This document shows positions 12,616-63,672 of a stretch of 64,000 nt of DNA, one piece after another. A program made the translations under genes and the position numbers. The notes under the pieces were generated by a model that was not told the origin of the DNA, did not search any database, and worked only from the letters and a program-made list of their open reading frames with translations. Origin of the DNA: Hydrurus foetidus (taxonomy: Eukaryota); the NCBI GenBank assembly GCA_900617105.1, contig UYFQ01000032.1:310001-374000 (forward strand), in the 5' to 3' direction. The number at the start of each line of letters is the position of its first letter. Within the stretch, counting starts at the first letter, position 1.

Positions 12616-12641
12616 GATTTTTGACTTCATTTTAAGGCTTA

Positions 12642-13853
12642 TCAGCTTATACGGCGTGCTATATCAGCTATCAACTGTGTAGCAAGCAAGCGTTTGGAAG
12701 CGTGTGGCAATTCGCGTGCGCCATCTGCATCGACCAGCAGCAAGGCGTTGTCGTCCAAGCCGAACGTGGCGGGGCCGATGTTGCCAACGAGCAGTGGCAC
12801 ACCTTTGCGGATGCGTTTGGCGGTGGCGTTGGCCAGCAGGTCATGGCTTTCAGCGGCAAAGCCCACGCAGAACAACGTGCCGCTTTGTGCACGGGGCGAA
12901 TGGGCCACAGCGGCCAAGATGTCGGTGTTCTCGGTAAACGTGAGCGAAGGGGTTTGACCGGATCCGTCTTTTTTGATTTTTTGCGTTGACGCACTGGCTG
13001 GCCGCCAATCTGCCACCGCAGCAGTTGCTATGAAAATATGAGCTATTGGCGCATATTTATTAACCGCCTCCAGCATATTCTGTGCAGATTGCACATTCAC
13101 ACGAGTCACGCCACGAGGAGTGGGCAGACTGACTGGCCCGGCGATCAGTGTGACCTGTGCGCCCGCCTCAAGTGCTGCTCTGGCAATGGCAAAACCCATC
13201 TTGCCGCTGGACAAATTGGTGATGCCGCGTACCGGGTCAATCGCCTCGAATGTCGGCCCAGCGCTTATCAGGACTTGTTTTCCCGCTAGTAATTTAGGTG
13301 TAAAGAAAGCGATCAAATCGGCCAGCAGCTCTTGCGGCTCCAGCATCCGGCCATCCCCCGTTTCGCCACAGGCTTGGTCGCCCTGCCCCACGCCCAGCAC
13401 GGTGGTGCCATCGGCTCTGAGTTGGGCCACATTGCGCTGGGTGGCGGGATGTGCCCACATTTCGCGGTTCATCGCCGGGGCAAGCAGCAAAGGCACCTTG
13501 TCGAGGGGCCGTGCCAAGCACATCAAACTCAGCAAATCGCCCGCACCGCCTTGCACCAATTGCGCCATGAAATCCGCACTGCACGGCGCGATGACGATGG
13601 CATCGGCCTCACGGCTGAGGTTGATGTGCGGCATATTGTTAGCTTCGCGGGTGTCCCACTGTGAGCTGTAGACGGGCCGGTTAGAGAGTGCTTGCATCGT
13701 CACCGGGGTGATGAACTGCTCGGCCGCAGCCGTCATCACCACCTGCACCGTGGCACCTTCTTTGACCAAAGCGCGGCAAAAATCCGCGGCCTTGTAGCAG
13801 GCGATACCCCCAGTCAGTCCCAGAACAATGTGTTTACCGTTGAGTTCATTCAT
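12642..13853 (-). CDS. coaBC: Phosphopantothenoylcysteine decarboxylase/ligase
   Basis: [22 protein letters not shown] and [15 protein letters not shown] motifs; start at MNELNGK. Confidence 0.96.
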
Positions 13854-13886
13854 GCGCCGCAATGTAGCAGAGCAATACCCTGAAGA

Positions 13887-14199
13887 CAGCATTTTTAATC
13901 TTCGTTCACCACCTCTCGTGACTTACCCCTCGGGTCTGACATGATCAAGTTTATCTTCGGCATCGGCTGTGTGGCGTCTTCCCTTGGCAAGAGCGTCGCC
14001 TTAACCTCTCTCGCGACGAGCCTCAAATTGCGGGGCCTGACAGTCACCCTCATCAAACTTGCCCCTTACATTAACTTAGACCTTGGCACCATGTAGCTTT
14101 TCCAGCATGAGGAGGTATTTGTCACTGACGACGACGCTGAAACCTATCTGGATTTAGGCCATTACGAGCGCTTTATCACCCAGGGAATACGCCGCACCA
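13887..14199 (+). pseudogene. pyrG: Decayed duplicate of the pyrG upstream region and first ~86 codons
   Basis: Colinear without indels with 16046-16358 (offset 2159). ATG 13941 gives [17 protein letters not shown]...; TCG>TAG stop at 14094-14096. Confidence 0.92.
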
Positions 14200-14200
14200 C

Positions 14201-15763
14201 TCAAGCAGTTTGGAACTGTCTAACGAGAGTGGTCAGCGTTATCGCCTGTTCACTAAGTGATGCAGCAGCAGCAGCCGATTGCTCAACCAATGCAGTGTTC
14301 TGCTGTGTCATATCGTCAATTTCATGCACCGATTGGTTCAGTTGAACGATTCCTTCGGATTGCTGAGCCGAAGCCACACTAATTTCTTCGACAATGTGAT
14401 TAACTTGCTTAGCGTTTGTAACGATGCTCCGCATAGCCGTGCCAGCTTGCTCAACAAGTCGTACACCGCCATCTACGGCATCTACACTGGTCATGATGAG
14501 GACTTTTATTTCATGAGCAGCGTTCGCTGAGCGTTGGGCCAAAGCACGAACTTCGCTGGCAACAACAGCAAAACCCCTTCCTTGCTCACCTGCCCGAGCA
14601 GCTTCAACAGCAGCGTTCAGGGCCAAGATATTGGTTTGAAATGCAATGGAGTCAATCAAACCAATAATGTCATTTATTTTTTTGCTTGACTTTGCAATGT
14701 CTTGCATACTCAGAACCGCTTGCTCAACCACTTGACCACAATTCTGTGCAGAGTTCGACACAGAGGCAGCCAGCCCATTCGCCGTCTGCGCAGAAGCTGC
14801 CGTGCTCTGCACATTCTCTAACAGATGAGAAATTGCAGATGCTGTTATCTGCAAATTCTTGGCAGTTTGTTCAGTGCGCACGGATAAATCTTGGTTACCA
14901 GCAGCTATTTCTTGACTGGCTGATGAAATCAGCTCACTGGAGCCTCTTACTTGGGCCACGATGTAGGCAATACCTCCTTGCATATTTTCCAACGAAGTTT
15001 GCAGATCGGTCATTTCATCTTGGCCAAAAATTTCAATTTTTTGAGTTAAATCTCCTTTTGCAATAGAAACCGTATTAAGACGTACAAGCTTCAATGGATT
15101 ACAAATAGCAACTATATTTATCCAATTGGCTGAAACAACCAAAAGCAGTCCTATTGTTAACAAAATTGCAAAAATCAATTGCATTTGAAATGCAACCTGC
15201 TTTTGTTCATAGGTCGATGCCTGCAGAGTCAAGGTAATTCCTTCACCCAATTGCACGAGTAGCTTGTCCGCCTCCAAAAACTCTGACGCGGCCAATCCTG
15301 ATAATTTATGGGCAGAAGTTGCTGAATCAAAAACGCTTTCCTCCAAACTTTTTATAATAGGTTCCATTCGTGCCTTATATGCAGAAATTCGACCAGAAAG
15401 AGCTTTTACTACTGCTTTCTCCGACTCCGATCGCCCTACTGAGAAATGCTCAGTCAATTTATGTATGGTGTCCACACCGATTTCCCATTTTTGGTGAGAA
15501 TTTTTTATTTTATTAGGAGATTCATATAAAATAATCATTTCCTTCTCCAAAAGTCGTACTTTTGCCATTTCACTGCGCAAAAGATCAAGCCCTTTCAAAC
15601 TATCAACTGACAGCGCCGCAGCAAGCTCACTGGATGTTTGTACTCTGGCCATACCCCAAAGACCTGCACCACCCAAAAGCAATTGGAATATCATAATAAT
15701 AAAAACTACCACAATCATTCTATTTTTAATTCTAAATCCACGCATCATTTCTACAATATTCAT
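14201..15763 (-). CDS. Methyl-accepting chemotaxis protein (AT-rich, likely acquired)
   Basis: Two TM segments flanking a periplasmic sensor, HAMP domain, signalling hairpin [34 protein letters not shown]. Confidence 0.95.
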
Positions 15764-16045
15764 TTAATTTCTCCATGGGAGTTGTCTCAATTTCAAATAC
15801 ATTTAATAAAATTGCAAAATATGCAATCAAAATAAAATATAAGCGATTTATGGAAAATTTTTATTAAATAAATAATTTAATTTAATTTAAAAATTTCTTA
15901 AACCATCTTTTATCAGAAATTGATATACACAAGAGAAAAATGGTCATTTCAGCTGAAGCGCCCCGACCCCAATCACATGACGCACAGACTCGACCAAGTA
16001 GCCAGATCGCGCTAGAAGACCAAGAGCGTCGTCAATGAGGCCTAG

Positions 16046-17752
<1,707 letters not shown>

Positions 17753-20565: not shown

Positions 20566-21195
20566 ATGCAGTCTGCCGTGATGTTTGAGGATCTCTTCGC
20601 TGAGGCTTTCACCCTCTGGGGCAGTGCCACCACATGGTTAGAAGTGGCAGGCTTTGCACTGGCCGTGCTGATGGTGATTGGCAACATCTTTGAGAAACTG
20701 TGGGCATGGCCGCTGGCCATCATCAGCTCGCTGCTTTATTTCGCGCTGTTTTGGCGCAGCAAGCTGTATGGTGATGCAGTGCTGCAAATCCTCTTCGTCG
20801 TGCTGGCCCTGTGGGGCTGGTGGCAATGGTGGTATGGCAAAAAAGCCGATGGTGCAGCCTTACCCATCAGCACACTCACACAGCGTGGCACATTAAAAAT
20901 GATAGCTGCCTGCGCCCTGCTTTGGCCTGTTATAGGTCTTTTTCTTAAATTATTTACCGACACCGATGTTCCTTGGTGGGATGCCTTTCCGACCGCAGTC
21001 AGTCTGGTGGCGCAGTTTTTGTTGGCCCGTAAATACGTAGAGAACTGGCTGGCGTGGACAGCCGTCAACACCGTCAGCATCGGCTTGTTTGTGTACAAAG
21101 GGCTGTGGCTGACGGCCATTCTCTACCTGCTGTTCATCGCCATGAGCGTGGTGGGCTGGCAGGCGTGGCGCCAGCGTTTGCACACGGCAGCGTGA
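20566..21195 (+). CDS. pnuC: Nicotinamide riboside transporter PnuC family
   Basis: Multi-TM protein with PWWDAF and LLARKYVENW motifs; start may be at 20581. Confidence 0.88.
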   Translation: MQSAVMFEDLFAEAFTLWGSATTWLEVAGFALAVLMVIGNIFEKLWAWPLAIISSLLYFALFWRSKLYGDAVLQILFVVLALWGWWQWWYGKKADGAALPISTLTQRGTLKMIAACALLWPVIGLFLKLFTDTDVPWWDAFPTAVSLVAQFLLARKYVENWLAWTAVNTVSIGLFVYKGLWLTAILYLLFIAMSVVGWQAWRQRLHTAA

Positions 21196-21205: not shown

Positions 21206-21922
21206 GTGAATGTGCCTCTTGTTATCGCACTGCTGGGTGCCGAAAGCACCGGTAAAACCCAACTCACCCTGGCACTGGCCGCATACTGGCAAACTCAAGG
21301 GCTGACGGTGGTTGCGGTCGCCGAAGTACTGCGCAAATGGTGTGACCAAGCCGGACGCACGCCCCAGCCCCATGAACAAGCCGCGATAGCGCAAGAGCAA
21401 GCTCGCTGCACCCTGGCCGCGTTGACCACACCCGGCGTGAACATGGTGATCGCCGACACCACCCCACTGATGACAGCGGTCTACAGCGACAAACTGTTCC
21501 AAGACCGCTCGCTCTACGCTTTGGCTTTGGCCCACCACCGAATCTACACCCACACGCTGCTGACGGGCTTGGATTTACCTTGGGTGGCTGACGGCATACA
21601 GCGCGACAGCCCTGCTGTGCAAGCACCTGTGGATGCGATGGTGCGCAGTGCACTGGGCAGCGCAGGTATTGCTTTTCAGGTGGTGTATGGGCAAGGTGAA
21701 GAGCGCTTGCACAGTGCCTTGCGCGCTCTGAACGCAGGTAATTTTCGTCAAAATGCTATTAAATCAGTAGCATTTACCGCTGATTTCGTAAGGTTACAAA
21801 GCACTAAAAGCGATCAAAATACACGGGGACCGCGTAGCTCCCGCGCCACATGGGCCTGGGCGTGCGACAAATGCAGCGACCCCGAGTGCGAGCACCGCTT
21901 GTTTACTGGACTGCCGCTGTAG
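21206..21922 (+). CDS. NadR-like P-loop kinase/ATPase
   Basis: GAESTGKT P-loop, DTTPLMT, DLPWVADG; coupled to pnuC; C-terminal CDKC-CEH. Confidence 0.85.
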   Translation: MNVPLVIALLGAESTGKTQLTLALAAYWQTQGLTVVAVAEVLRKWCDQAGRTPQPHEQAAIAQEQARCTLAALTTPGVNMVIADTTPLMTAVYSDKLFQDRSLYALALAHHRIYTHTLLTGLDLPWVADGIQRDSPAVQAPVDAMVRSALGSAGIAFQVVYGQGEERLHSALRALNAGNFRQNAIKSVAFTADFVRLQSTKSDQNTRGPRSSRATWAWACDKCSDPECEHRLFTGLPL

Positions 21923-24274: not shown

Positions 24275-24517
24275 AATCAGGCTGTAACCCGCATGAATAC
24301 TAGGTTCCGGTGAATCAACTTTAAAAAGTACCGTAATAAGTACCGTAAAAATGTTTTGTGACCCCCTTGCGAGGGTTCGTATGGTCTGATTCTATGCCCA
24401 CAGGAACCCCATGCTCGCATCAAAACCTGCGGGGACAGCTGGCCGATTTGTTAATGGGGGGAACCACCGGGTTTTCAGGCATCATCGTATACGGGTATCC
24501 CGTACAATCACCACCCC

Positions 24518-24814
24518 ATGTACACCGTCATCGAATCCCCCGTCTTTCAAAAGCAGGCCGTGAAGGTTTGGGATGAAGCCGGGCGTTTTGCCTTCATCGA
24601 CTGGATCGCAAAAAACCCGATGGCGGGTGACGTGATTCCCGGTGCTGAAGGTGCGCGGAAAGTACGCTGGGCGGCTTCCGGGCGTGGCAAGCGCGGCGGC
24701 GCTCGGGTGGTTTACTTCAACTTGTCCGCACAGGGCGTGGTTTATTTGGTGACGGTCTATATCAAAGCCGATCAAGCCAACATCCTGCCCGGCGAAATTA
24801 AGGAGGTGGTTTGA
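24518..24814 (+). CDS. RelE/HigB-like type II toxin
   Basis: NPMAGDVIPGAEGARKVRW-GKRGGARVVYF-YIK pattern; toxin-first gene pair. Confidence 0.88.
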   Translation: MYTVIESPVFQKQAVKVWDEAGRFAFIDWIAKNPMAGDVIPGAEGARKVRWAASGRGKRGGARVVYFNLSAQGVVYLVTVYIKADQANILPGEIKEVV

Positions 24815-24815
24815 T

Positions 24816-25124
24816 ATGGATATTGAAAAAGTAGCCAAGGCCATTGAGGCAGATGCTGGTTTTGTGCTGCCTGACCTTCGCGAGGCTCTGGCACAGGCTC
24901 AAGCGGGCCTTGGGCGAGTCACCACACCAGAGCAAATACTGCTACGACAAGCGCGGACAAAAACAGGGCTATCGCAGCAAGCGTTTGCCCAACGCATCGC
25001 CACCTCGGTAGCCACTTTACGCGACTGGGAACAAGGGCGGTTCGTGCCACCGGGTGGCGTGCTGTGCCTGCTGCGCTTGATCGACAAACATCCTGAATTG
25101 GCCGCTGAACTCGAAACCGCCTGA
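24816..25124 (+). CDS. Xre-HTH antitoxin
   Basis: GLSQQAFA-VATLRDWEQGR HTH; starts 1 bp after the toxin stop. Confidence 0.88.
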   Translation: MDIEKVAKAIEADAGFVLPDLREALAQAQAGLGRVTTPEQILLRQARTKTGLSQQAFAQRIATSVATLRDWEQGRFVPPGGVLCLLRLIDKHPELAAELETA

Positions 25125-25655
25125 TTGCAGGTCTACCGCATCGCCATAAACCCCTTGGTCTATGAGCCGCCCACCTCATAGACCTCATAGGGGCTACGTG
25201 TTTGCCGCCGTGACCGTAAAGCCCTCGCGCCCGCGCGTACATCTCGGTGCGCCGCTCTGACAGCGTGGGATTGAAGGGACTGGGGTGTAACCAGGAGGTG
25301 TAACTACTCTGCTGCACCCTTACGCCATTGAAGGACTTCAGCCCCCACCATGAATGCGTTGGCTTCTATGATTTGCCGCTCAGTTGCCACTCTTGATGCG
25401 GAAACTGCCTTGGAAACCTCGCGTCTGGAAACCGCACGGCAATCCGTCGTTCGGGATGGTGTGCGTCAAACCTGCCTATTGAAACTTACGCAAAACCCTT
25501 TTGCGAAGATGTGCAAGTCTGTCGCAAATTGCAGCAAAAGTAAGCATTTTCCATTTCCTCAAAATGAAAGCACATGAGGAAACTTCAGCATTTTTTAGCA
25601 TTTCCCACGCGGAACACTCAGGTTTTTGCAGGTTTTCTCAGGTGAGCAAATATGC

Positions 25656-26114
25656 TCAGCCCCTGAAGTAGTCACACCGGTGCAGCACGGCCAGCACCGC
25701 CATACCTCGGGTGCAACGCCCATAGCTCAGCCCCCGGCATTCTTGGCAGTGGCGGCGATCATCTTGCTCACGGTCACGCCGGTTCAGCGTATCGGCCAGC
25801 CGGTGCGCAGCGTCCAGCCCCATTCCTTTGTCAGTGAAGCGGGCCGTTCGCACTGTGAAGGTGTCCAGCTCCACCGCGTTCATGGCGGTGCTGTGTGGCC
25901 AGCACCAGCGGTCAGGGTCTGGTTTGATGGCTGGGTCAGCGTCTTTGGGCGATGCTGTGGGGTCGTTTGCAGCCCCCTCCCTTTTTTGAATATGCTCAGG
26001 GTACGACCCTACAAAACCTACGAAACCCCCATTTTGAGGTTTTGTAGGTTTCGTAGGGTCGGTTTCAGGGGCATCCTGACTTTTCAGACTTTGAAGGCGT
26101 GCCAGCCAATTCAT
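25656..26114 (-). CDS. Satellite hypothetical protein overlapping iterons; C-terminal CxxC
   Basis: ATGA-coupled to the primase; PTKPTKP/GFVGFVG is encoded by inverted DNA repeats; CQEC-C-C. Confidence 0.6.
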   Translation of the reverse strand: MNWLARLQSLKSQDAPETDPTKPTKPQNGGFVGFVGSYPEHIQKREGAANDPTASPKDADPAIKPDPDRWCWPHSTAMNAVELDTFTVRTARFTDKGMGLDAAHRLADTLNRRDREQDDRRHCQECRGLSYGRCTRGMAVLAVLHRCDYFRG

Positions 26115-28573
26115 GGCGAAACTTTCACCGATGCCGTCATTGCAGCCGGGTTGATGGCGTAGCGTTCGCTGGGTCTGCCACCTGTTGGGCCGGAATGCAC
26201 GACCTCACGGCGCAACCAATCGTAGTCGGCCAGCACCTCAGCCGCTTTGCGCACCGCCTCGGGGGTGGTCAGCTCAGCCCAGCCTTTGACAGCGATCATG
26301 CGCGGGGTGAAGCCGTCCAGCACCACACCATCCCGGTCTGTCAGCTTGCCCGCTCTGATTTTGGTCAGCAACGCCCTTGCCCCCGATGTTTCAGGCGTGA
26401 CCGCTGCCGCGTAGAGCCTGTCTGCATGGGTACGCAGGTACTCACTCCACGCCAGCGCACGCATCAACTCACGGGCATGAACCACTTGGCCGTTGTCTGG
26501 GGTGTCAATGTTGGCGAACACTAACGCCAGGGCGGGGATTAGCTTGCGGTACTTGGCGAGGTGGCTTTCCATTGCGGGGTGGAGTTCACCGCCTTGGAGT
26601 TCTTGCTCGAAAGCGGTACGCCACTCCACAAACAAGGCTTGAGCCTCGGGGCTGAATCGCCATACATTGGCCTCGGTGTCGCTCGCTGGGGCAAGGTTGG
26701 CCAGCCGCTCGAATACCGCCCATGCTGTGGTCTTGGCGGGTGTGTCGGGCCATTGGTCAACGTGGACAAATCCACCCCCCGTGTCGGGCCACACGGTCAG
26801 GCTGAAGCGCTGCAACAAGCCATCATCGGCGCTGCCACCGGCCACAGCATCCCGCACATAGGATTGAATGCGCCCCGGTTGAATGCCGCCGATCATCGCC
26901 AGACACACGCGCGGAATGTGCAGGGTGCCACGTGCGATGCGGTCAAAAGTGTAGCCCTGATTCCCGTCATAGCCTTGCAGGTAGAAAGACCGCGCCCCTT
27001 CCTGCCCTTGCTTGTCCATGCCGGTCAGCAGGCCGTAGAGTTCATCGCGGTAGCTCAGGGTGCCCCACGGGTTCGCGGTCAGTATTTCACCCAGCTTTTC
27101 CACGGTGGCATCGTTGACGATGTAGCGCCGGGCCAGGGGTTCCTCGGTGGTGGCTGCGGGTTCCAACAGGGCACGCGCTGCAAGGGGGTCTTTGACGGCG
27201 AGCGCTTTGGCCTTGCCTGCCCGCTCTGCGTTTTGCAGCTCGGTGACTTTGCAGTCCAGTACCCACGCCTCATGGGATTCTTTGTGGCGCTCGAACTCTG
27301 CGCTTTGCAAGCGGTGCAAGGGTTTGAGGGCTTCACTCAGCGCCGGGGATTTCATCGCGCCGGGTCTGCCCACAATCAGCCCCCAGAGGTTGGGGGTGAC
27401 TTGCCAGTCGTCGCGCTCTTTGGGGTGAACCACGGCTTTGGCACCGATCAGGCTGGACAAGGCCACCACCGCGCCCACGGCGGCAAAGTCTGGGGGGCAC
27501 TGCATACGGTGTGCAATGTCCAGCACCCAGCCCCGCAATGCCTCGGGCAGCAAATCGGCATGGAAGGCCATCACCGGGAGTAGCGCCGTGGGTAGCGGGG
27601 TGGGTTCTGGCCATGCTTGCAATGGGTTTGCAACAGGCTCCGCACTGAGTGCAGAATTACCAGCCCCCCATGCTGGCCGTGCAGCCCCCATGCACTGCAC
27701 GACAGCCCCAGCCCCGGCGAGCTGGTGCAGGTCGTTGAAGTCGGTGGCCTTGTCGGGGCGGTCTTCTCCAAACAGGGGGGTGGCGATCAAGCCATTCACG
27801 GCGTGGGCTGCTGCGCTTGCTTTGGTCATGCCTGGGTTGCCCTCGGTCAGGTGGTCGTCGTCTGCGGCTATGCACAGAGTCAGGGTGGGGTACTTGGCTT
27901 TCAAGGCGATGGCGACGGCTTCCAAGTTGCCCGCGTTGAAGGTCACGGCCACGGCGTGCTGTGTGGCTTCAAAGATGCTGGCACCGGTGGCGAAGCCTTC
28001 GCACACGACCAACATCCCGCCAGTGGGTTTGCCTATGGCGTGGTAGCAGCCTTTGACCCGTCCACCAGGGTGAAAGCGCTTGCTGCCATCGGGTGCGATG
28101 GTTTGCAGGCTGTGCAGCTTGCCCGCTGTGTCGCGCATGGGAATCAGCAGCGTGTCACCGAATACCCGCACACCGTGGGGCTGGATACCTTTGGTAGTCA
28201 GGTAGGGATGCGCCGTGACCAGCTCAGCGTTTGCCCACAGCCGCGCCACGGCTTCGCGGGCCTGCTGGTGCTGGGTGGCTTTGTCGGTTTCGCGCTGAGC
28301 CTTCATGGCCTGGGTGCGCACGCGGTGGGCTTCGCGCTCGGCCTCGGTCATGTCGTTGTCGGCCTTGCTGCACCAGGGCACCGTGAGGGCAGAACGCCAG
28401 TCCCCAAAGGCACCGGCGGCGATGCCATCAGTGTGCAGGATGTACCAGCCGGTTTTATCCGGGCGTGTGTCGGTGCTGAAGCGGTGCAACTTGCCATCAT
28501 CAATGAGGGCATCGGGCGGGGTCAGTCCAGCGGCTGCTATGGCGATTTGGAAGTGTTCGGCGGGGTTACTCAT
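26111..28573 (-). CDS. TOPRIM primase fused to DUF3987/YfjI-type helicase
   Basis: VCEGFATG and AADDD TOPRIM motifs; GRPGAMKS Walker A; DELYG; DGLLQRF. Confidence 0.9.
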   Translation of the reverse strand: MSNPAEHFQIAIAAAGLTPPDALIDDGKLHRFSTDTRPDKTGWYILHTDGIAAGAFGDWRSALTVPWCSKADNDMTEAEREAHRVRTQAMKAQRETDKATQHQQAREAVARLWANAELVTAHPYLTTKGIQPHGVRVFGDTLLIPMRDTAGKLHSLQTIAPDGSKRFHPGGRVKGCYHAIGKPTGGMLVVCEGFATGASIFEATQHAVAVTFNAGNLEAVAIALKAKYPTLTLCIAADDDHLTEGNPGMTKASAAAHAVNGLIATPLFGEDRPDKATDFNDLHQLAGAGAVVQCMGAARPAWGAGNSALSAEPVANPLQAWPEPTPLPTALLPVMAFHADLLPEALRGWVLDIAHRMQCPPDFAAVGAVVALSSLIGAKAVVHPKERDDWQVTPNLWGLIVGRPGAMKSPALSEALKPLHRLQSAEFERHKESHEAWVLDCKVTELQNAERAGKAKALAVKDPLAARALLEPAATTEEPLARRYIVNDATVEKLGEILTANPWGTLSYRDELYGLLTGMDKQGQEGARSFYLQGYDGNQGYTFDRIARGTLHIPRVCLAMIGGIQPGRIQSYVRDAVAGGSADDGLLQRFSLTVWPDTGGGFVHVDQWPDTPAKTTAWAVFERLANLAPASDTEANVWRFSPEAQALFVEWRTAFEQELQGGELHPAMESHLAKYRKLIPALALVFANIDTPDNGQVVHARELMRALAWSEYLRTHADRLYAAAVTPETSGARALLTKIRAGKLTDRDGVVLDGFTPRMIAVKGWAELTTPEAVRKAAEVLADYDWLRREVVHSGPTGGRPSERYAINPAAMTASVKVSP

Positions 28574-28824
28574 GCGCGTTCTCCTGGGGGACTGGTGGTG
28601 GTGGCGTGGCTGTTTGCGGGGCGGGTGGCGGCTCTTTCGGCACTGGCTGCGAGGATGCGTAAAAGCCCGACAGCGCCCTCTGCCCGGTCTGCGAAGTCGT
28701 AGGCGTAATCCCAGTCGGGTACTGATTTACGAATCTCGGACAAGGCCACCAGGAGGGCGGATTCAGCCCGTATCAAGGCCAGGGCGAACTCGGTGGCGGC
28801 GGCGGGTGTGGCGGTGGTGTTCAT
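28570..28824 (-). CDS. Small satellite hypothetical protein
   Basis: ATGA-coupled on both sides within the replication operon. Confidence 0.65.
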   Translation of the reverse strand: MNTTATPAAATEFALALIRAESALLVALSEIRKSVPDWDYAYDFADRAEGAVGLLRILAASAERAATRPANSHATTTSPPGERA

Positions 28825-29198
28825 GCTGCACCGCCTTTCAGAACTGCCTGTGCGCAGTCCCCCAGCTCTTCAATGCTGGCCTGTGTTTGGCTGCAAGCGT
28901 GGGCTGCGTCCAGCAGCATCACTTGCATGGCCGTGGCGTGTTCGATGCTGAACCGGTCGTTGTTGATGGATATGCCTTGGTCGTTCAAATCCTTCGCCAG
29001 TGGGGCACACCATTCAGCTTTGGAACGAATCGCGTCCAGTGTGGCAATGGCCCCAAACATCCAGCTTGCAAGGCGTAGCGCCCCCTCAGCTTTGCCTATG
29101 TGCTCGTAGTCTGACAGCTCAAAAATGCCTGCCGTCAAGGTCTCCAATGTGGGCGTGGCTGTGGCGTTGGTGCCCGTGGGCGTGTTGGTCGTGCTCAT
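28821..29198 (-). CDS. Small satellite hypothetical protein
   Basis: In the operon; ends with KGGAA that supplies the RBS for the next gene. Confidence 0.65.
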   Translation of the reverse strand: MSTTNTPTGTNATATPTLETLTAGIFELSDYEHIGKAEGALRLASWMFGAIATLDAIRSKAEWCAPLAKDLNDQGISINNDRFSIEHATAMQVMLLDAAHACSQTQASIEELGDCAQAVLKGGAA

Positions 29199-29201
29199 GA
29201 T

Positions 29202-29432
29202 TTAAGCCCCCACCGTTGCTGCGTTTTGCTGCGTTCTGCTGCAAGCGTGCTTCAGCAGGGTCAGTGCCCGGTTCGCTTTGGCCGTGGCGGCGTGCAGATT
29301 GATGGCTGCACTGCCGGGGTGACGAAGGTGGTACAGCGCCATGCTCAGGGCGTTCTCGGCCAAGGCGTGGAGTTGGATGCTGTCGATGGCGTGGCCCGCT
29401 GTGGGCGTGATGGTGGTGTTGACCTGGGTCAT
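29202..29432 (-). CDS. Small protein downstream of the C4-like RNA (Icd/kil-like position)
   Basis: GGAG RBS before ATG 29432 (MTQVNTT...); the RBS overlaps the antisense target. Confidence 0.6.
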   Translation of the reverse strand: MTQVNTTITPTAGHAIDSIQLHALAENALSMALYHLRHPGSAAINLHAATAKANRALTLLKHACSRTQQNAATVGA

Positions 29433-29486
29433 GGTTTCTTCTCCGGAATGAGACTGAAAACCACCGTTTGCGTTTCTACGCGCATT

Positions 29487-29555
29487 GGGTGGGTGGGGTG
29501 TTAGAAACATGGATTCCGCCATGCGGCCAGCCTTGCGGACAAGCCCATCCCACCC
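29487..29555 (-). ncRNA. C4/P4-CI-like antisense immunity RNA
   Basis: 11-bp outer stem and two inner hairpins. Loop CGGAAU and bulge UUUCUA are complementary to paired sites both upstream and downstream. Confidence 0.75.
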
Positions 29556-29613
29556 GTAACCAGCGGCGTGCGCGTGACCAAAGGCCACACGTTCACCAAA
29601 ATTGGGGCGTGAT

Positions 29614-29635
29614 AAAACCCCACTTAAGGCGGGGG
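29614..29635 (-). terminator. Terminator-like hairpin after the upstream antisense target
   Basis: Minus strand reads CCCCGC-CTTAA-GTGGGG-TTTT. Confidence 0.5.
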
Positions 29636-29732
29636 CTGAGACCTCGGAATCAACGGTGTTTCTACGCACCATCCCTCTCGGGACGTGGGCAGTATAGCGG
29701 GAATGATGCCGCGTGAGGCTTGCTGAAACCAA

Positions 29733-29761
29733 TTGACGTTTAACGCCATGCGTTATACACT
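29733..29761 (+). promoter_or_regulatory. higBA sigma70 promoter with palindromic operator
   Basis: TTGACG-N17-TACACT; TAACGC-CAT-GCGTTA palindrome in the spacer; ATG 7 nt after the -10 box. Confidence 0.75.
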
Positions 29762-29768
29762 TTGCGTC

Positions 29769-30047
29769 ATGATTCAAAGCTTTAAATGTGCGGACACAAA
29801 AGCGCTGTTTGAGGGGCAAGTGGTGGCGCGGTTTGCCAATCTGAGCACGGTGGCGACACGCAAGCTCCAAGTACTGCACAGCGCCTTGTTGCTTATGGAC
29901 TTGCGCGTTCCGCTGGGAAACCACCTTGAGGCGCTCATGGGCAACCGTGCAGGGCAGCACAGTATTCGCGTGAATGACCAATGGCGCTTGTGTTTTGTGT
30001 GGACACCCACCGGCCCCGCAGCCGTTGAAATTATTGATTACCACTGA
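29769..30047 (+). CDS. higB: HigB toxin
   Basis: MIQSFKC-T-LF, DLRVPLGNHLEAL-GQHSIRVNDQWRLCF, EIIDYH. Confidence 0.93.
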   Translation: MIQSFKCADTKALFEGQVVARFANLSTVATRKLQVLHSALLLMDLRVPLGNHLEALMGNRAGQHSIRVNDQWRLCFVWTPTGPAAVEIIDYH

Positions 30048-30059
30048 AGGAGCTATTCC

Positions 30060-30389
30060 ATGACTACCACCACTGAAATCCCTGTCAACGGTATGCGCCC
30101 CATCCACCCCGGCGAGGTGCTGCGTGAGGAATTCATTACCCCGTTGGGACTGACCGCGCACGCCCTGTCGATGGCGCTGCAAGTCCCCGCACCTCGTATC
30201 AGTGAAATCGTGCGCGAGCGCCGGGCGATCACTGCTGATACCGCCTTGCGGCTGGCTAAGTACTTCGACACCAGTGTTCAGTTTTGGCTGAACCTGCAAA
30301 CTGACTACGACGTTGCTGTCGCACGCACCACCATGACCGCCGTCCTTGACCGAATCAGCCGCTGCGAAGGACTGGCAGCCCATGCGTGA
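30060..30389 (+). CDS. higA: HigA antitoxin
   Basis: HPGEVLREEF, RAITADTALRL and FWLNLQ motifs. Confidence 0.95.
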   Translation: MTTTTEIPVNGMRPIHPGEVLREEFITPLGLTAHALSMALQVPAPRISEIVRERRAITADTALRLAKYFDTSVQFWLNLQTDYDVAVARTTMTAVLDRISRCEGLAAHA

Positions 30390-30613
30390 CTTGCTGCGCA
30401 CGAATGTCCCAGCGGCATAGCCCCTGCAAATAACCCGGCTGGGGCTGCGCACCAGTTCTGCGTACCGGCTTTGCGTACCGTCGTTGTGCAGCGCATCCAC
30501 CAGCCCCCAAGCGTTCACCGTGGTGTTCAACACCGTGGCAGAATCAGGGCTGTAGTTGGTTTGCTTTGGGCCTCGGATGTTTGCAGCGTCCGGGGCTTTC
30601 GTCTTTGTGGGGT

Positions 30614-30904
30614 TCATGCTTTTGTTCCTGTGGTGTGGTGCAAAACGTAAGCGCCAACGCGGTGAACGACACCGGCCTCGGTCACGACCTCCATCCAATG
30701 CCGCTGAATGTCTTCACCCCGCTGGCGTAAGTCCTTGATGCGGGCGCGTGGGTCGTAAATGTCCAGGTGGCGCGATGCCTCCAAGCTGTTGACGAAGGGG
30801 AGTTCGCTCAGAGCTGCCTTCAAACGAATGCATTGGGTCGCGCCGGTCACGCCTTTGAAGCGATCGCGGATGGCGTGCAGGGTGTTGATTTTTTCGGAGT
30901 TCAT
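30614..30904 (-). CDS. Winged helix-turn-helix protein
   Basis: EASRHLDIYDPRARIKDLRQRG pattern, typical of satellite HTH genes. Confidence 0.75.
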   Translation of the reverse strand: MNSEKINTLHAIRDRFKGVTGATQCIRLKAALSELPFVNSLEASRHLDIYDPRARIKDLRQRGEDIQRHWMEVVTEAGVVHRVGAYVLHHTTGTKA

Positions 30905-30917
30905 GGTTTTTTCTCTT

Positions 30918-31280: not shown

Positions 31281-31284
31281 AGCG

Positions 31285-31605
31285 TCAGGTGGTGACGGAT
31301 TTGAGGTGGGCATTGCGCAGCTTGGTAGCCGCTGGTTTGGGGTAGTCCGGTGGGGCTGGTGGTGCGTCCCCGGTCATTTTGCGCAGCCATTCCCGCACGT
31401 CACCAACTTTCCAGGCGCTCACACGATCAGAGAGTTTTACGGGCGCTGGGAAGGTCTTGGTTTTGACCTTGCGCCACAGTGTCGGGCCGCTGAATGGCAG
31501 TACCGGCGTGGCGTTGGGCCGCTTGGGGCTTTGAACGAGTTGGGACTCGCGGATGTAGGCACTGTCTGCCAGTGCGTCGAAAGGGGATATGAGTTGGGGT
31601 GACAC
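31285..31605 (-). CDS. alpA: AlpA-family regulator/excisionase
   Basis: LPFSGPTLWRKVK-FPAPVKLS-SAWKVGDVREW. Confidence 0.88.
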   Translation of the reverse strand: MSPQLISPFDALADSAYIRESQLVQSPKRPNATPVLPFSGPTLWRKVKTKTFPAPVKLSDRVSAWKVGDVREWLRKMTGDAPPAPPDYPKPAATKLRNAHLKSVTT

Positions 31606-33143: not shown

Positions 33144-33593
33144 TACGCCATGAAGTTCATCAAATCAATGGTTACTCCATATTGGTAGTTAATAGTTTGC
33201 TATCAATATAGTAGTAAGTGAAAAAATGAGTCCTACGCGAGAGGAAACCCCCCGTGAGAAAACGACCCCGTGAGGGTCAATCTGGGGATAGGGGTCTGGG
33301 AAATTTCCTGATATGCGGAAGTGAAAATTGAGCTAAACCTACGGTCTTTAGCCCCTGACCCTCCAAGGAATGAAAGGGCATACCCCCATTTTGATTATTT
33401 CTACAGGGGGATTTAACCTGCGAATGGGAAAACATGCGGTCTAGGCAGGGTCGATTCGTTCAGGGATTTACACCCCCCTACACACCACGCGGTGGGCGAT
33501 GGCTGGCCTGTAGCTGTGGGGCTTGGTCATGCTGCCCGGTGTAGCGCAGGCTGTTAGCAAATGTTAATGTTCGCGCCAAAGTAGCGGTCACGG

Positions 33594-37698: not shown

Positions 37699-37745
37699 AA
37701 CACATTCAATGCTATTAATTTCATAGCAACTTAAGACCGTATATC

Positions 37746-42394: not shown

Positions 42395-43258
42395 TTACAG
42401 CGTCAAAATCGCGGCAGGCAGGGCCAATGCCTTGACTTTGTTGGCAGCTTTTTCGGCCTCGGCCTTGCTGGTGAACGGGCCTAGGCGTACGCGGGTGCGG
42501 GGGCCGTCTTTGGTTTCAGCAACGTGGGTGTAGGTTTTCAGACCAGCGTGCTCCAGCTTGAGGCGGGCTTCTTGGGCTTTGGCGGCATCGGCAAAAGCGC
42601 CGACTTGGATGATGTAACGGCTGTTGTCTTCATCCTTCGCATCCTTGCTGTCTTTCACTTCTTTGATTTCTTTAGATTCTTTGGGCTTGGCCGGTGGTTT
42701 GCTGTCCAGCAGCGCTTTAGCACGGGTGCCGTCGTCGGCTTTTGCTTCGTTATGTTTCGCTTCGTTATTTGTAGCTGCTACCGCCCGTGCAACCTGCTGT
42801 TTAGCCGTATTTTTAGCTGAATCAGAAGCGACAAGCTGCTCTTCATCATCCAAACTGGCGGCAGCGGACACCTTGGTGTCTGCGGGTTTGGTCACAGCGC
42901 GTGCAGGAGCCGTCGCAGGTGGGGAAGATGTGGCGGACGACACCCCCACCTTAGCAGGACGACTGGGAACGGGCGCAGAGGGCGCAGGTGCCTCAGACAC
43001 CACAACCTCAGTGGCCGGGGTGGACATTTGCAGCGGAGCGACTTTGGCTTTGTCAGGAATCTCAATCTGCACATCCACCGGCATAGGCCGGGGTTGCGTA
43101 TCGAACACCAGCGGAAAGCCCACCACGCCAATCAGTACCAGCACTACTGAGCCGATCAAGCGGTTGCGGGCACGTTGGCGCAACGTCTCAACGCTTTCAG
43201 CAGGACGGGTAGAGGGGGTGGGGGAATCGCCAGCTTGGCGGAACTTGAAAAAAGCCAT
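42395..43258 (-). CDS. dedD: SPOR-domain protein DedD
   Basis: RNRLIG plus TM segment, low-complexity linker, SPOR domain (IQVGAF-RVRLGPF). Confidence 0.85.
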   Translation of the reverse strand: MAFFKFRQAGDSPTPSTRPAESVETLRQRARNRLIGSVVLVLIGVVGFPLVFDTQPRPMPVDVQIEIPDKAKVAPLQMSTPATEVVVSEAPAPSAPVPSRPAKVGVSSATSSPPATAPARAVTKPADTKVSAAASLDDEEQLVASDSAKNTAKQQVARAVAATNNEAKHNEAKADDGTRAKALLDSKPPAKPKESKEIKEVKDSKDAKDEDNSRYIIQVGAFADAAKAQEARLKLEHAGLKTYTHVAETKDGPRTRVRLGPFTSKAEAEKAANKVKALALPAAILTL

Positions 43259-43269: not shown

Positions 43270-44607
43270 TCAGACGCCGTTGAGGTGTTTCGCGTGGAGT
43301 CGAGGCAGACCGTCTTTTAAAACACCGCCTACCGTCAGGAACGAACCAAAAACGACGATTCTATCAGCGGGGTTGGCTGCAGCTACGGCAGCGTCCAGCG
43401 CCTGTTTCGGGTCAGCGTAGGTGCTCGCACGCTCTGTGGGGAGCGCCGCAAACGCCGCGCCAGCGACGGGTTTAAGGGTCTCAAAAATACTTTTAAGCTG
43501 CTGCGCGGTGGCAGCACGGGGCAGGGGCAAGTCGCAAAAATACCATTTATCGACCAGCGGCCCGATGCGGGCGAGCATGGCGGCGAGGTCTTTGTCCGCC
43601 ATCGCCCCCAGCACGGCATGGGTGCAGGGGTAAAAACCCATCGCGTCGAGGTTTTCGGTCAGCGCGGCGACGGCGTGGGGGTTGTGCGCCACGTCCAACA
43701 CCAGCACCGGCTCGCCAGGGATGATCTGGAAGCGGCCCGGCAGCGACACCATCGCCAAACCGTTGCGCACAGCCTGCGCGGTGACGGGGATTTTCTCGCG
43801 CAAAGCGTCCAGCGCGGCCAGCACGCCTGAAGCGTTCACCAGTTGGTTGGCACCCCGCAGTGCCGGGTACGCCATACCGGCGTAACGCCTACCCCGTCCG
43901 GCCCAAGCCCACTGCTGCTTGTCGCCGGTGACGTTGAAATCACGGCCAAACCGCCATAAATCGGCACCCAGCTTGTCTGCGTGGTCCAAAATGCTCTGCG
44001 GCGGCATGGGGTCACTGACCACCACAGGCCGCCCGGCACGCATGATGCCGGCCTTCTCGAAACCAATGGCCTCGCGGTCATTCCCGAGCAATTCGGTGTG
44101 GTCGAGGTCAATGCTGGTGATGACAGCGCAGTCCGCGTCGATGATGTTGACGGCATCCAAGCGGCCACCCAGGCCCACTTCCAGGATCACCACATCCAGC
44201 TGTGCTTTCGCCAGCAGTTGCAGGATGGCCAGGGTGCTGAACTCAAAATAAGACAGACTGATCTCACCATTGTCGGCATCCCTATAGCCTCTAGCGCTTT
44301 CGATATAAGCGAAGTTAGCTACCAAATTTGCAGCAGACACACTCTCACCATGCACCCGGCAGCGCTCTTCAAACTGCACCAAATGCGGGGAGGTGTAGAC
44401 CCCAGTGCGGTAGCCTGCTTCCAGCAGGATGGCCTCTAGCATGGCGCAGGTAGAGCCTTTGCCATTGGTGCCCGCCACGGTAATCACCGGGCAATCGAAG
44501 TGCAGCTTCAGGCGATTGGCCACAGCTTTAACGCGGCCCAGGCCCATTTCAATGGCGGTGGGGTGAAGGTGCTCGCAATGAGCCAGCCAGTCTTGCAGGG
44601 TTTTCAT
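43270..44607 (-). CDS. folC: Dihydrofolate/folylpolyglutamate synthase
   Basis: VAGTNGKGS, YTSPHL, LEVGLGGRLD and LDVAHNP motifs. Confidence 0.97.
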   Translation of the reverse strand: MKTLQDWLAHCEHLHPTAIEMGLGRVKAVANRLKLHFDCPVITVAGTNGKGSTCAMLEAILLEAGYRTGVYTSPHLVQFEERCRVHGESVSAANLVANFAYIESARGYRDADNGEISLSYFEFSTLAILQLLAKAQLDVVILEVGLGGRLDAVNIIDADCAVITSIDLDHTELLGNDREAIGFEKAGIMRAGRPVVVSDPMPPQSILDHADKLGADLWRFGRDFNVTGDKQQWAWAGRGRRYAGMAYPALRGANQLVNASGVLAALDALREKIPVTAQAVRNGLAMVSLPGRFQIIPGEPVLVLDVAHNPHAVAALTENLDAMGFYPCTHAVLGAMADKDLAAMLARIGPLVDKWYFCDLPLPRAATAQQLKSIFETLKPVAGAAFAALPTERASTYADPKQALDAAVAAANPADRIVVFGSFLTVGGVLKDGLPRLHAKHLNGV

Positions 44608-49273: not shown

Positions 49274-49367
49274 GGTTATCCTTGTGTATCAAAATGGCTT
49301 TCATAGCTGGTGCAATAAGCACAATCAGCTATGAAATCAGGAGTTATAGAAAGCAACTAAGCCGGGC

Positions 49368-58048: not shown

Positions 58049-60337
58049 ATGTCCACTGAAACCGTCTCCACACCCAGCTTCTTTGAAGACATCAAGCTGC
58101 TGCGCATCAACTACCTGCGTGGCCCCAACATGTGGACGTACCGCTCGATCCTCGAAGTCTGGCTCGATTTGGGCGCGTTGGAAGACCACCCCACCAACCT
58201 GATTCCTGGCTTCACCCCCCGCTTGACGGCCCTGCTGCCCGCGCTGATCGAGCACCACTGCGGCGTGGGCGAGCGCGGCGGCTTTTTGCAGCGGCTCGAA
58301 GAGGGCACCTGGTGCGGTCATGTGCTGGAGCATGTGGTGATCGAGCTGCTCAACTTGGCCGGTATGCCCACCGGCTTTGGTCAAACGCGCAGCACGTCCC
58401 AACGCGGTGTCTACCGCATGGTGTTCCGTGCGCGTGACGAGCAAGTCGCCCGCCTCGCACTGAGCGAAGGCCACACACTGCTGATGGCGACCCTGCGCAG
58501 CCAGCCGTTTGACGTGGAAGCCGCCGTGGCCCGCATCCGCGAAAAGCTGGACGACTGCTACCTCGGCCCCTCCACCGCCGCCATCGTGGGTGCCGCGACC
58601 GACCGCAACATCCCACACATTCGCTTGAACGAGGGTAATTTGGTGCAGCTGGGCCACGGGGCCAAACAGCGCCGCATCTGGACGGCCCAAACCGATCAAA
58701 CCAACGCCATCGCGGCCGGAATAGCCCGTGACAAAGACCTGACCAAAACCCTGCTGAAAGCCTGCGGCGTGCCTGTCCCCGAGGGCATGGTGGTCAACAG
58801 CGCTGACGAAGCCTGGGAGGCCGCGCAAGACATCGGCTTGCCCGTGGTCATCAAACCGTCTGATGGCAACCATGGCCGGGGCGTGACGCTGGATTTGCGT
58901 TTGCGCGAGCACTTTGCCGAAGCCTTCAGAATTGCCGACGAGGAAGGCTCTGAGGTGCTGGTCGAGCGCTCCATACCTGGCGACGAACACCGCCTGCTGG
59001 TAGTGGGCGGCAAAGTGGTGGCGGCGGCCCGTGGTGAATCCGCCTGGATCACCGGCGACGGTGTGAAAACCGTGGAGCAGCTCATTGCCAGCCAAATCAA
59101 CACAGACCCGCGCCGTGGCTGGGCAGAAGACTTCCCGTTGAGCCCTATTGACCTCAAAATCGACCACGTTATCGTGCAAAACCTGCAACGCCAAGGTTTG
59201 GATGGCACCAGCGTGCTGCCTGTGGAACAGCGTGTGCTGCTGGTGCGCAACGGCAACATGGCGATGGACTGCACCGCCCTGGTTCACCCCGAAGTCGCCC
59301 ATGCCGCCAGTCTGGCCGCACGGGTTGTTGGTCTGGACATTGCTGGCATTGACATGGTGGCCGAAGATATCAGCCAGCCGCTGCAAGCCCAAGGCGGCGC
59401 GATTGTCGAGGTGAATGCTGGGCCAGGGCTGTTGATGCACCTGAAGCCCGCTGAAGGCACGCCCCAGCCTGTGGGCCAAGCGATTGTGGACCACCTGTTC
59501 GCCCCCGATGAGACGGGCCGCATCCCCATCGTGGGCGTAACGGGCACGCACGGCACCTCCACCATCGCCCGTTTGGTCGCTTGGTTTTTGCACCTGGCTG
59601 GCCGCCATGTCGGTTTGGCCTGCCGCGAAGGGCTTTACCTGGGGAACCGCCTCGTCGAGCGCCAAAGCGCCGCCCGCTGGGAACCCGCCTACCGCCTGCT
59701 GATGAACCGCGCCGTAACCACCGTGGTGGCCGAAAACGATGCCACCTCCATCTTGCAAGACGGCTTGGCTTATGACCGCTGCCTGATTGGTGTCGTCACC
59801 GATTTGGACGGCATTGAAAGCCTGAAAGACTTTGACATCCAAGACGAAGCCCAACTCTTCAAAGTAATGCGCACCCAGGTGGACGTGGTCTTACCCGAAG
59901 GTTTTGCCGTGCTGAACGCCGACGATGCCCGCGTGATGGGCATGGCCGAGCTGTGCGATGGCCAAGTCGTGCTGTACGGCATGGATGCCCACAGCGCCGC
60001 GATGGAAACCCACCGCGCTCAAGGTGGCCGTGCCGTGGCCTACCAGCGTGGCCGCGCCGTGCTGTTCACAGGCACTGCAGAAACTCCGGTAGCGAACGTG
60101 GATGCCGTGGTAAAGCGCTTGAATGAGGCACGGACAGCTACAAATACAGTAGCAAAACCCGACAGCGCACGCGGCATCAGCGAAGCCGCTGTGCTGGCCG
60201 CGATTGCCACCGCGTGGGCGCTGGGCATCGTGCCTGAGCTCATCAGCGCCGGGCTGGACACCTTTGCAGTGGATGCCACGGCGGCCAGCATTGCTACCAA
60301 TTCAATAGCTTTCGAAGCTCATACTGTAAGCGTTTAA
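58049..60337 (+). CDS. cphA: Cyanophycin synthetase paralogue (CphA'), degenerate Mur-ligase half
   Basis: RGPN, LGPST, KP-DGNHGRGV and EVNAGPG motifs; P-loop reads GTHGTS; shorter than the downstream paralogue. Confidence 0.88.
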   Translation: MSTETVSTPSFFEDIKLLRINYLRGPNMWTYRSILEVWLDLGALEDHPTNLIPGFTPRLTALLPALIEHHCGVGERGGFLQRLEEGTWCGHVLEHVVIELLNLAGMPTGFGQTRSTSQRGVYRMVFRARDEQVARLALSEGHTLLMATLRSQPFDVEAAVARIREKLDDCYLGPSTAAIVGAATDRNIPHIRLNEGNLVQLGHGAKQRRIWTAQTDQTNAIAAGIARDKDLTKTLLKACGVPVPEGMVVNSADEAWEAAQDIGLPVVIKPSDGNHGRGVTLDLRLREHFAEAFRIADEEGSEVLVERSIPGDEHRLLVVGGKVVAAARGESAWITGDGVKTVEQLIASQINTDPRRGWAEDFPLSPIDLKIDHVIVQNLQRQGLDGTSVLPVEQRVLLVRNGNMAMDCTALVHPEVAHAASLAARVVGLDIAGIDMVAEDISQPLQAQGGAIVEVNAGPGLLMHLKPAEGTPQPVGQAIVDHLFAPDETGRIPIVGVTGTHGTSTIARLVAWFLHLAGRHVGLACREGLYLGNRLVERQSAARWEPAYRLLMNRAVTTVVAENDATSILQDGLAYDRCLIGVVTDLDGIESLKDFDIQDEAQLFKVMRTQVDVVLPEGFAVLNADDARVMGMAELCDGQVVLYGMDAHSAAMETHRAQGGRAVAYQRGRAVLFTGTAETPVANVDAVVKRLNEARTATNTVAKPDSARGISEAAVLAAIATAWALGIVPELISAGLDTFAVDATAASIATNSIAFEAHTVSV

Positions 60338-63107: not shown

Positions 63108-63119
63108 TCCTGTATCACG

Positions 63120-63152
63120 CCCTCTCCCGCTGGGGGAGGGTTGGGGTGAGGG
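63120..63152. repeat. REP-like palindrome between convergent genes
   Basis: CCCTCTCCC-GCT-GGGGGAGGG followed by TTGGGGTGAGGG. Confidence 0.6.
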
Positions 63153-63162
63153 CTCTTCGTCT

Positions 63163-63672
63163 TCAACCCCGCTTGAACATCCGTGCCAGCAGCCAGCCAC
63201 TCAGCACGCTAAACCCCGCAAAGCACAGAAACGACCAGTTGGCAATCGAGCCACCCAAGAGCGTCCAATCCACCTTGGTGCAGTCCCCACCACCCCGGAA
63301 GATCATCGGAATCGCGCGTTTGAGCGGAAAAGTTTCCACCATCCCGTAAAAATCCCGCCCACAGGTCACCACCTCGGGCGGATACCACTGCAACCAGGTC
63401 TGCATAGCCGCCACATACGCGCCGCCCACGGCAAACAGAAGCAGCAGCGACGTGAAGGTGATTTGCAAGCCTTTTTTGCCACTTATGCTTGCCAGACCAG
63501 CGAAGACAGCTACAAAAATAAGAGCATACCGCTGCACAATGCACATCGGGCACGGCTCCAGCCCCACCACATGTTGCAGGTACAGGCCAAAAGCCAGCAT
63601 GGCGATACAAGCGACGCACAACAGCGCCAACACACGGCGCGGTGCCGCATCAATCCAACTCATCAACAGCAT
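63163..63672 (-). CDS. dsbB: Disulfide bond formation protein B
   Basis: EPCPMCIVQR, a second Cys pair, four TM segments; start at MLLMSW. Confidence 0.93.
   Translation of the reverse strand: MLLMSWIDAAPRRVLALLCVACIAMLAFGLYLQHVVGLEPCPMCIVQRYALIFVAVFAGLASISGKKGLQITFTSLLLLFAVGGAYVAAMQTWLQWYPPEVVTCGRDFYGMVETFPLKRAIPMIFRGGGDCTKVDWTLLGGSIANWSFLCFAGFSVLSGWLLARMFKRG

Follow-up and report, generated by a model that had tools for sequence, protein, structure and literature searches.

A 69-bp DNA element overprinted on genes of Comamonadaceae and its likeness to DNA uptake sequences

Sequence-specific DNA uptake signals have been described for two bacterial families only (PMC2817400), as the uptake signal sequence (USS) of Pasteurellaceae and the DNA uptake sequence (DUS) of Neisseriaceae. 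In the sections of the literature on which this account draws (PMC2817400, PMC3458573, PMC6776037; the same limit applies to the sources cited below), these signals arise by mutation and recombination and not by insertion, are spaced more evenly than at random, occur in both orientations, form lineage dialects, are found in temperate phages, are under-represented in genes yet reshape proteins, and combine a GC-rich core with helically phased T-tracts. The same features are found in a dispersed element of about 69 bp that was recognised in a stretch of 64,000 nucleotides (the window, that is, the whole of positions 310,001 to 374,000 of contig UYFQ01000032.1 in the Hydrurus foetidus assembly GCA_900617105.1) and that recurs in the Comamonadaceae, where numerous genomes have tens to hundreds of copies and others have none. 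The CoaBC protein encoded in the window is 71-81% identical to that of Comamonadaceae and allied loci, the placement on the tree not being firm at genus level.

The element differs from USS and DUS in its length (69 bp against cores of 9-12 bp and the 32-bp USS), in its palindromic core, in a five- to six-fold lower density and in its patchy occurrence within one genus; it is also known here from sequence alone, whereas USS and DUS are signals of demonstrated uptake systems. Its universal core is unrelated to the USS and DUS cores, and the only kinship found is one short dialect match that may be due to chance, CAAGCGGT at positions 36-43 in the genome G366 agreeing with 8 of the 9 bases of the Actinobacillus pleuropneumoniae core ACAAGCGGT. 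The element appears to act like an uptake sequence without being, by its sequence, a member of the USS/DUS family. Uptake-type molecular drive, which the original prediction from the letters of the window had not considered, offers the best fit to the evolutionary pattern described below; that the element does behave like an uptake sequence under such drive is a reading in which belief and doubt are evenly balanced.

The anatomy of the element was defined with a position weight matrix (PWM) that was seeded with the window copies and then rebuilt from 102 copies of relatives, the final set containing no window copies. Information content begins at position -3 and ends near position 66, which corrects the 55-60 bp originally claimed. 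The core, T-GCTAY-N7-RTAGC-T at positions 1-19, is palindromic and is followed by GC at 26-27; a second block spans 24-49 and differs by lineage at 36-49, and phased A/T tracts lie at 8-12, 52-55 and 62-66, the one at 52-55 being either an A-run or a T-run. The predicted fixed geometry with variable filler is borne out, and the GC marks placed at 39-40 and 48-49 in the 3’ part are to be restated, the strongest positions family-wide being G39, G41-C42-T43 and the T- or A-tract at 52-55. In the Acidovorax genome G001 the element carries about 59 bits.

Among 112 copies in 800 kb of G001 the maximum pairwise identity is 0.83 and no target-site duplication was detected (best excess 0.06), while in five candidate stems compensatory pairing was no more frequent than column frequencies predict, and Rfam has no family at any copy. 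Because near-identical copies, duplications and covariation are lacking and A- and T-runs are interchanged at 52-55, this is the pattern of what would be a double-stranded site, partly read by its shape, and not of a hairpin or a young repeat, in line with the original suggestion of a protein-type signal. Adenine-specific template mutagenesis, as in diversity-generating retroelements, was ruled out by invariant columns of both A and T. The core presumably shares the T-N11-A geometry of LysR-type boxes; these sit upstream of regulated promoters and are bound by a LysR protein, and the placement of the element in genes and convergent spacers does not match.

Comparison of closely related genomes shows that positions are stable and that the sequence at them is not. 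Between G001 and G384, whose genes are 87.5% identical, an element persists at 38 of 41 syntenic sites (at one of them in flipped orientation), and in 37 orthologous pairs TAGC at 15-18 and GCG at 39-41 are 100% conserved, while the dialect assigns the pairs to the right species in 31 of 37 cases, out of sample. Between G001 and G366 (88.3% identical) 21 of 25 sites are kept, and C42 has become G at 11 of 19 orthologous sites, against a change at 11.9% of four-fold C sites; the six sites that retain C42 look mostly coding-constrained. In the motif-poor genome G363, one of nine syntenic sites survives. Stable sites, dialect switches and decay together point to a directional force on sites that stay where they are, a force that varies from species to species and can be lost.

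The genome-scale tests were run on relatives’ genomes, the window data covering 64 kb. At all 13 places listed by the original prediction the letters are as given, and the host gene names agree with Pfam. The window copies score 10 to 49 bits each with the PWM, and are as follows.

12619..12687, minus strand: element that covers the 3’ end of coaBC with its stop codon and extends up to the start of dut (24 bits)
13023..13091, plus strand: full element within coaBC, antisense to the gene (43 bits)
13237..13305, minus strand: weak element within coaBC, in an alignment without indel (15 bits)
20886..20954, plus strand: weak element within pnuC, a nicotinamide mononucleotide transporter gene, Pfam PF04973 (10 bits, core 16 bits)
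21751..21819, plus strand: element in the C-terminal linker of an AAA_28 (NadR-like) gene (26 bits)
33151..33219, minus strand: partial element in an integrase-bearing island (25 bits, almost all of them from the core)
33594-34823: tyrosine integrase gene of the island, by Pfam
37710..37727, plus strand: palindromic core only, 12 bp past a thiolase stop codon (core 28 bits, 3’ part -30 bits)
42755..42823, plus strand: element in the low-complexity linker of dedD, which encodes a SPOR protein, antisense to the gene (27 bits)
44270..44338, minus strand: full element within folC (42 bits)
49280..49348, minus strand: full intergenic element immediately 3’ of a DUF4331 gene (47 bits)
60137..60154, minus strand: core (25 bits) whose 3’ part is degenerate (-17 bits), in cphA’ where it encodes a variable loop
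60289..60357, plus strand: full element overlying the codons for the C-terminal tail of cphA’ together with the stop codon (49 bits)
63461..63529, minus strand: full element within dsbB (35 bits)

Nine of the 13 places hold a full or near-full 69-bp element, one has a weak tail, two (37710 and 60154) have the core only and one is an island relic; the 3’ parts at 20889 and 21754 are weak. Of ten copies assigned to coding sequence eight lie wholly inside it and two (12684 and 60292) straddle stop codons. The core pattern GCTNYNNWWWNNRTAGC gives 11 strand-matches in the window, at 7 sites, where 100 dinucleotide shuffles led to an expectation of 0.13. Within 39 open reading frames (ORFs) of the window, five matches of at least 20 bits lie wholly inside, against 0 after codon shuffling and 0.02 after synonymous shuffling (100 shuffles per control), and the 19-bp core gives 9 strand-matches, against 0.03 and 0.07 after synonymous and codon shuffling respectively (60 each); the hit rate is thus far above that in codon-shuffled sequence, the comparison proposed with the original prediction.

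The copies are not spread over the whole window. No element was found in its first 12.6 kb, in which positions 13-7502 hold what we take from the translations to be cellulose-synthase-like genes, with BcsB- and BcsC-like members. The element is absent from an AT-rich chemoreceptor-like gene and spacer at 14201-16050, probably a recent acquisition. A satellite-like island at 24400-35000, beside a tRNA cluster, encodes the tyrosine integrase and a Toprim/DUF3987 protein and contains an int-alpA RNA at 32559-32638; the relic at 33151..33219 is the sole match between 22.0 and 35.6 kb. The proposed depletion in islands is partly seen, low-GC bins being less dense (about 9 against 13-15 copies per 100 kb, in few bins).

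How the in-gene copies came about is best seen by comparison with orthologs, which have no indels at the gene copies and uphold the claim that the element is overprinted on coding sequence. For coaBC, the rebuilt PWM set includes the relatives’ own coaBC sites, and the test therefore used a PWM from G001 tiles only: the site at 13026 was found in 19 of the 25 motif-rich genomes but in only 1 of the 24 motif-poor ones (Fisher P 2e-7, the genomes not being independent), although an identical 61-residue span is found there in all 49 readable genomes of 50. The copy at 12619..12687 recurs in Rhodoferax and Ramlibacter loci, its coding part without indel. The orthologous dsbB site scores 38 bits in Rhodoferax, 21 in Acidovorax, -24 in Polaromonas, -37 in Variovorax and -42 in Delftia with no indel, and the window copy is composed of rare A/T-ending codons and conservative changes.

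The site in the NadR-like linker holds a 74-bit copy in Acidovorax, a 62-bit copy in Polaromonas and a remnant peptide in Variovorax, and the dedD linker has matches in Polaromonas and Rhodoferax, with KPEP repeats there in Variovorax and Delftia. The pnuC copy is collinear with the Variovorax ortholog, the sole one recovered, and the folC copy is mostly collinear with five orthologs, with 3-7 extra residues at the 3’ end of the element. For the copy at 60154 in cphA’, comparison with five distant orthologs had suggested a 13-residue insertion, which was rejected since 120 homologs show the loop long before the motif; the nearest homologs already have a loop of 44-48 residues without the motif peptide, which appears stepwise. 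In-gene copies thus seem, from these alignments, to arise in place by substitution with protein length unchanged, and since new copies form in this way their origin from a domesticated miniature element, one of the options offered initially, is not supported.

Across the family, a strict pattern is present in 112 of 301 genomes with a two-humped spread reaching about 510 matches, the reversed controls staying near zero; in the bacterium of the window and many relatives the element recurs every 5-7 kb. When 50 genomes from the 80 named loci were classed, with at least 15 cores per Mb taken as motif-rich, 26 were rich (Acidovorax, Simplicispira, Ottowia, Polaromonas, Rhodoferax, Curvibacter, Hylemonella and one Ramlibacter) and 24 poor (Delftia, Comamonas, Giesbergeria, Hydrogenophaga, Variovorax, Caenimonas, Limnohabitans, Rubrivivax and most Ramlibacter), although L067, one of the latter, probably uses another dialect. 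On a quick CoaBC tree the rich or poor state switches 8 times, and well-supported branches force 3 of these switches. Of the 67 genomes of one genus, 9 have 0-1 matches, and four of these negatives have 17-22 degenerate core matches each, against 385 in G366. In motif-poor G351 (contigs C2, C13 and C24), a few degenerate cores recur near-identically with one shared 3’ context, which suggests that another repeated unit carries them.

The copies are distributed around the chromosome more evenly than expected by chance. For 60 copies in 420 kb of G001 the coefficient of variation (CV) of the gaps is 0.69, against 0.97 for random placement (P 0.0008) and 0.90 for an intergenic null (P 0.011); in G384 it is 0.64, with none of 5000 simulations as low, and 20 tiles of 20 kb round one chromosome hold 1-4 copies each (P 0.001). 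No strand bias between replichores, a check proposed with the original prediction, was found in the G001 tiles (11 plus and 17 minus in one replichore, 11 plus and 15 minus in the other, in one genome); a bias apparent in match listings was rejected, totals and fetched tiles showing none. By a simple ORF caller, 36 of the 60 copies are intergenic, 11 lie at gene edges and 13 in ORFs, of which 7 have the orientation of the gene and 6 the opposite one.

Mobile DNA is unevenly supplied with the element. A scan of viral sequences matched at least 124 stretches, and 67 of the 80 viral loci among the matches listed score at least 25 bits; of 36 longer records chosen among them, 15 are classed as proviruses and 25 encode a tyrosine integrase, as do 17 of the 21 near-complete ones. 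In two lytic phages of Rhodoferax and Curvibacter, whose hosts are unscored for the motif, 0 copies were found in 77.7 kb. Five large Polaromonas and Rhodoferax plasmids have 2 cores in 1.50 Mb (4 in the reversed control), where about 100 would be expected at chromosomal density, which is 38 cores per Mb in R. ferrireducens OTU1 and 72-103 per Mb in five Polaromonas genomes. In the phage records L305 and L308 (G412, G414), copies make up the C-termini of small ORFs and most share one orientation per record.

Near-identical copies were found only within duplicated integron cassettes. The locus L346 (G307:C1:1-12000) is an integron-like array with 23 attC-like ends and AadA-family and SMR-family cassettes; it holds 13 near-identical copies of the element, most of them in cassettes of about 319 bp without a convincing ORF, one copy in each.

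Under molecular drive, a new 69-bp signal would form in place by point substitution, and DNA bearing it would be preferentially taken up or recombined into the chromosome, copies accumulating as for DUS and USS. The reader would be a protein complex that recognises the bases of the core and, in the A/T tracts, their shape; any substitution giving a better match would spread by homologous recombination without local benefit, and a change in the specificity of the reader would re-tune all sites. The sole opposing force would be selection on the host protein, which would explain a preference for spacers, linkers and C-termini; as drive of this kind, through recombination, does not depend on a gain at the individual sites, it also allows costly overprinting and outright loss. 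The biased step would most likely be uptake at the surface through type IV pili, with periplasmic, cytoplasmic or donor-side bias as alternatives. A wider proposal, tentative and rated a little short of even, is that the Comamonadaceae possess a self-recognition code of their own for gene exchange, a third one, independent and far longer, read by a complex whose specificity shifts between sister species, re-tuning hundreds of fixed sites and rewriting core proteins, and that the G307 cassettes exist to carry the signal.

The search for a reader covered competence, pilus and transposase families. As had been stated from the window, no cognate protein is identifiable among the candidate families profiled, PF16732, PF12019, PF04350 and PF03772 being present in rich and poor genomes alike (scored as family presence or absence). 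An orphan FimT was rejected as receptor, the 20 loci fetched encoding other pilins and the extra PF12019 matches being type II secretion and MSHA pilins, and loss of pilus or competence genes was discarded as the cause of motif absence, no such loss being seen. The comEC loci L292-L303 have 12 copies in 8 loci of motif-rich genomes, which are not independent because they fall mostly at two recurrent in-gene, orthologous sites. Acidovorax facilis and A. temperans are naturally competent (PMC4212676), and A. facilis is motif-rich (G306, 312 cores); Verminephrobacter eiseniae is the sole family member with a report of selective, pilus-dependent uptake (PMC4212676).

Several observations speak against molecular drive. 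Neither ComEC (24 of 24 rich genomes, 23 of 25 poor, 5 of 5 in-genus negatives), ComP_DUS-family pilins (20 of 24 rich, 25 of 25 poor), GspH/FimT (24 of 24 rich, 24 of 26 poor) nor PilO (kept in 8 of 9 in-genus negatives) tracks the motif; A. defluvii and A. delafieldii are motif-rich here yet gave no transformants (PMC4212676), and V. eiseniae has one significant spaced pair, of a different repeat, in the covered part of the supplement to PMC5217627. The element is twice as long as the 32-bp USS, its density is about 0.14 per kb against 0.8-0.9 for USS, and 47 of the 60 G001 copies lie between genes or at their edges. At some intergenic copies the sequence is longer by 70-80 bp, a gain that does not come from point mutation alone, and divergence is faster at free positions than at four-fold sites (residual similarity 0.23 in intergenic and 0.46 in coding copies, against 0.67), which drive does not predict. 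Finally, absence from plasmids and lytic phages also fits a function on the chromosome inside the cell or recent arrival.

The strongest competitor, possible though on balance doubtful, is a protein or complex inside the cell that binds these sites, bending or wrapping the chromosomal DNA at regular distances, for organisation, segregation, repair or self-marking, with the sites kept by ordinary selection. It would account for the dyad core with interchangeable A- and T-tracts as a read-out of shape, for the invariance of TAGC(15-18) and GCG(39-41) in the 37 pairs, for even spacing, for restriction to chromosomes and prophages, for the 13 short G307 cassettes with one copy each, and for competence genes that do not track the motif. 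What it leaves unexplained is the lack of any ori, ter or strand pattern and of a candidate protein, the outright loss of the family among close relatives (9 genomes out of 67 in one genus) and the switch of a near-fixed base at most free sites within 12% gene divergence, which would demand hundreds of independent sweeps. Among described chromosome codes, parS, matS, the SlmA- and Noc-binding sites (SBS/NBS), the FtsK orienting polar sequences (KOPS) and Chi are protein-read motifs overlaid on genes and spacers, but are 8-16 bp long and tied to ori, ter or strand, whereas the element is 69 bp and uniform round the chromosome (in one genome). A chromosome-architecture code, one of the readings offered by the original prediction, is therefore a poor fit in its known kinds, there being no strand or ori/ter bias and the family having been lost or gained several times.

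Homogenisation of an ancient, immobile repeat by short-patch gene conversion, which would convert look-alike coding stretches as well, is improbable. Free positions do turn over fast and dialects are concerted, adjacent columns are linked (nearest-neighbour identity 0.72 against 0.68 expected), some spacers show net length gain and one site has flipped around its central palindrome, all as conversion would have it; against this, no near-identical pair exists among 112 copies (maximum 0.83), the motif was gained stepwise in cphA’ and codon by codon in dsbB, and conversion alone gives no reason for even spacing.

Far less credible still is an active element spread by a transposase and inserted in frame, akin to MITEs (miniature inverted-repeat transposable elements), repetitive extragenic palindromic (REP) sequences or Rickettsia palindromic elements (RPEs). 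RPEs are dispersed short palindromic repeats, some of them in genes, and REPs or REP doublets (REPINs) with REP-associated tyrosine transposases (RAYTs) and MITEs likewise form hundreds of short, partly palindromic copies, mostly intergenic and some genic. The element resembles them in its palindromic parts, its mostly intergenic placement and the 70-80 bp gains at some spacers, and in 4 of 5 orthologs of a Y1 (HUH) gene a copy lies close by on the downstream side. It differs from them in having no insertion signature, no hairpin covariation and fixed positions: there is no target duplication (best excess 0.06) or young subfamily, sites are fixed between species, and genes have no indels. The Y1 gene (PF01797, the sole transposase family tested) was found in 23 of the 24 rich and in 23 of the 25 poor genomes, and no arrays flank it. 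The active-element reading is thus largely refuted, in keeping with the original prediction, which had ranked it below its other readings; the check set there for a known repeat family with duplications gave no Rfam family at any copy and no target duplication. The single-copy Y1_Tnp (HUH) gene itself (L105:1462-2154 and orthologs) is found in 46 of 49 genomes, mostly at 60-78% identity, and looks like a domesticated transposase; several orthologs have GGGGTCAG upstream and GTGTCCCC downstream. The main text of PMC3733652 does not mention these genera.

A family of structured RNAs, terminators or promoters has as little in its favour. A central hairpin is possible in Acidovorax copies, a T-run follows the fully palindromic copies, and the reverse strand of some copies resembles by eye a sigma-70 -35/-10 pair. 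Yet pairing is at expectation in five stems, Rfam has no match, genic copies run with the gene (7) or against it (6), 12 of 60 copies lie in or at convergent spacers, and other dialects lose both the hairpin and the -35 look-alike; the promoter version was rejected because, by eye, 18 of the 26 copies found in co-oriented spacers have the orientation opposite to the one that the look-alike would need.

Pieces of the element have been reported before. Tong et al. 2017 (PMC5217627) list GCTTAT(N5)AAGCG with 114 copies in Acidovorax ebreus, which corresponds to element positions 26-41, and ATAGCT(N22)CAAAAG with 125 copies in Polaromonas naphthalenivorans, which fits positions 14-47; R. ferrireducens has the most spaced pairs of any genome tested there, 140. 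These fragments are given separately as ‘potential novel motifs’ of unknown function and are not joined into one element, and the parts of that paper covered describe no overprinting, dialects or distribution. The Burkholderiales-1 motif (PMC2864571) is, like the element, repeated, from the same order and not in Rfam, but its sequence is GC-rich and unrelated, which ruled it out as the identity of the element. No description of the whole element was found in the literature covered, which did not extend to subscription papers.

If molecular drive is the right explanation, the element would be a third, unrelated uptake signal, in a large family of freshwater, soil and wastewater bacteria, and would point to a new DNA receptor; with the element so often gained and lost and its dialects shifting fast, molecular drive could be tested as a natural experiment, and the element added to donor DNA might raise transformation of these strains. 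Should the intracellular binder prove correct, it would be a new kind of chromosome code. On either reading, the motif alters codons and residues in core genes, can flag the hosts of phages, and may explain some integron cassettes that have no ORF.

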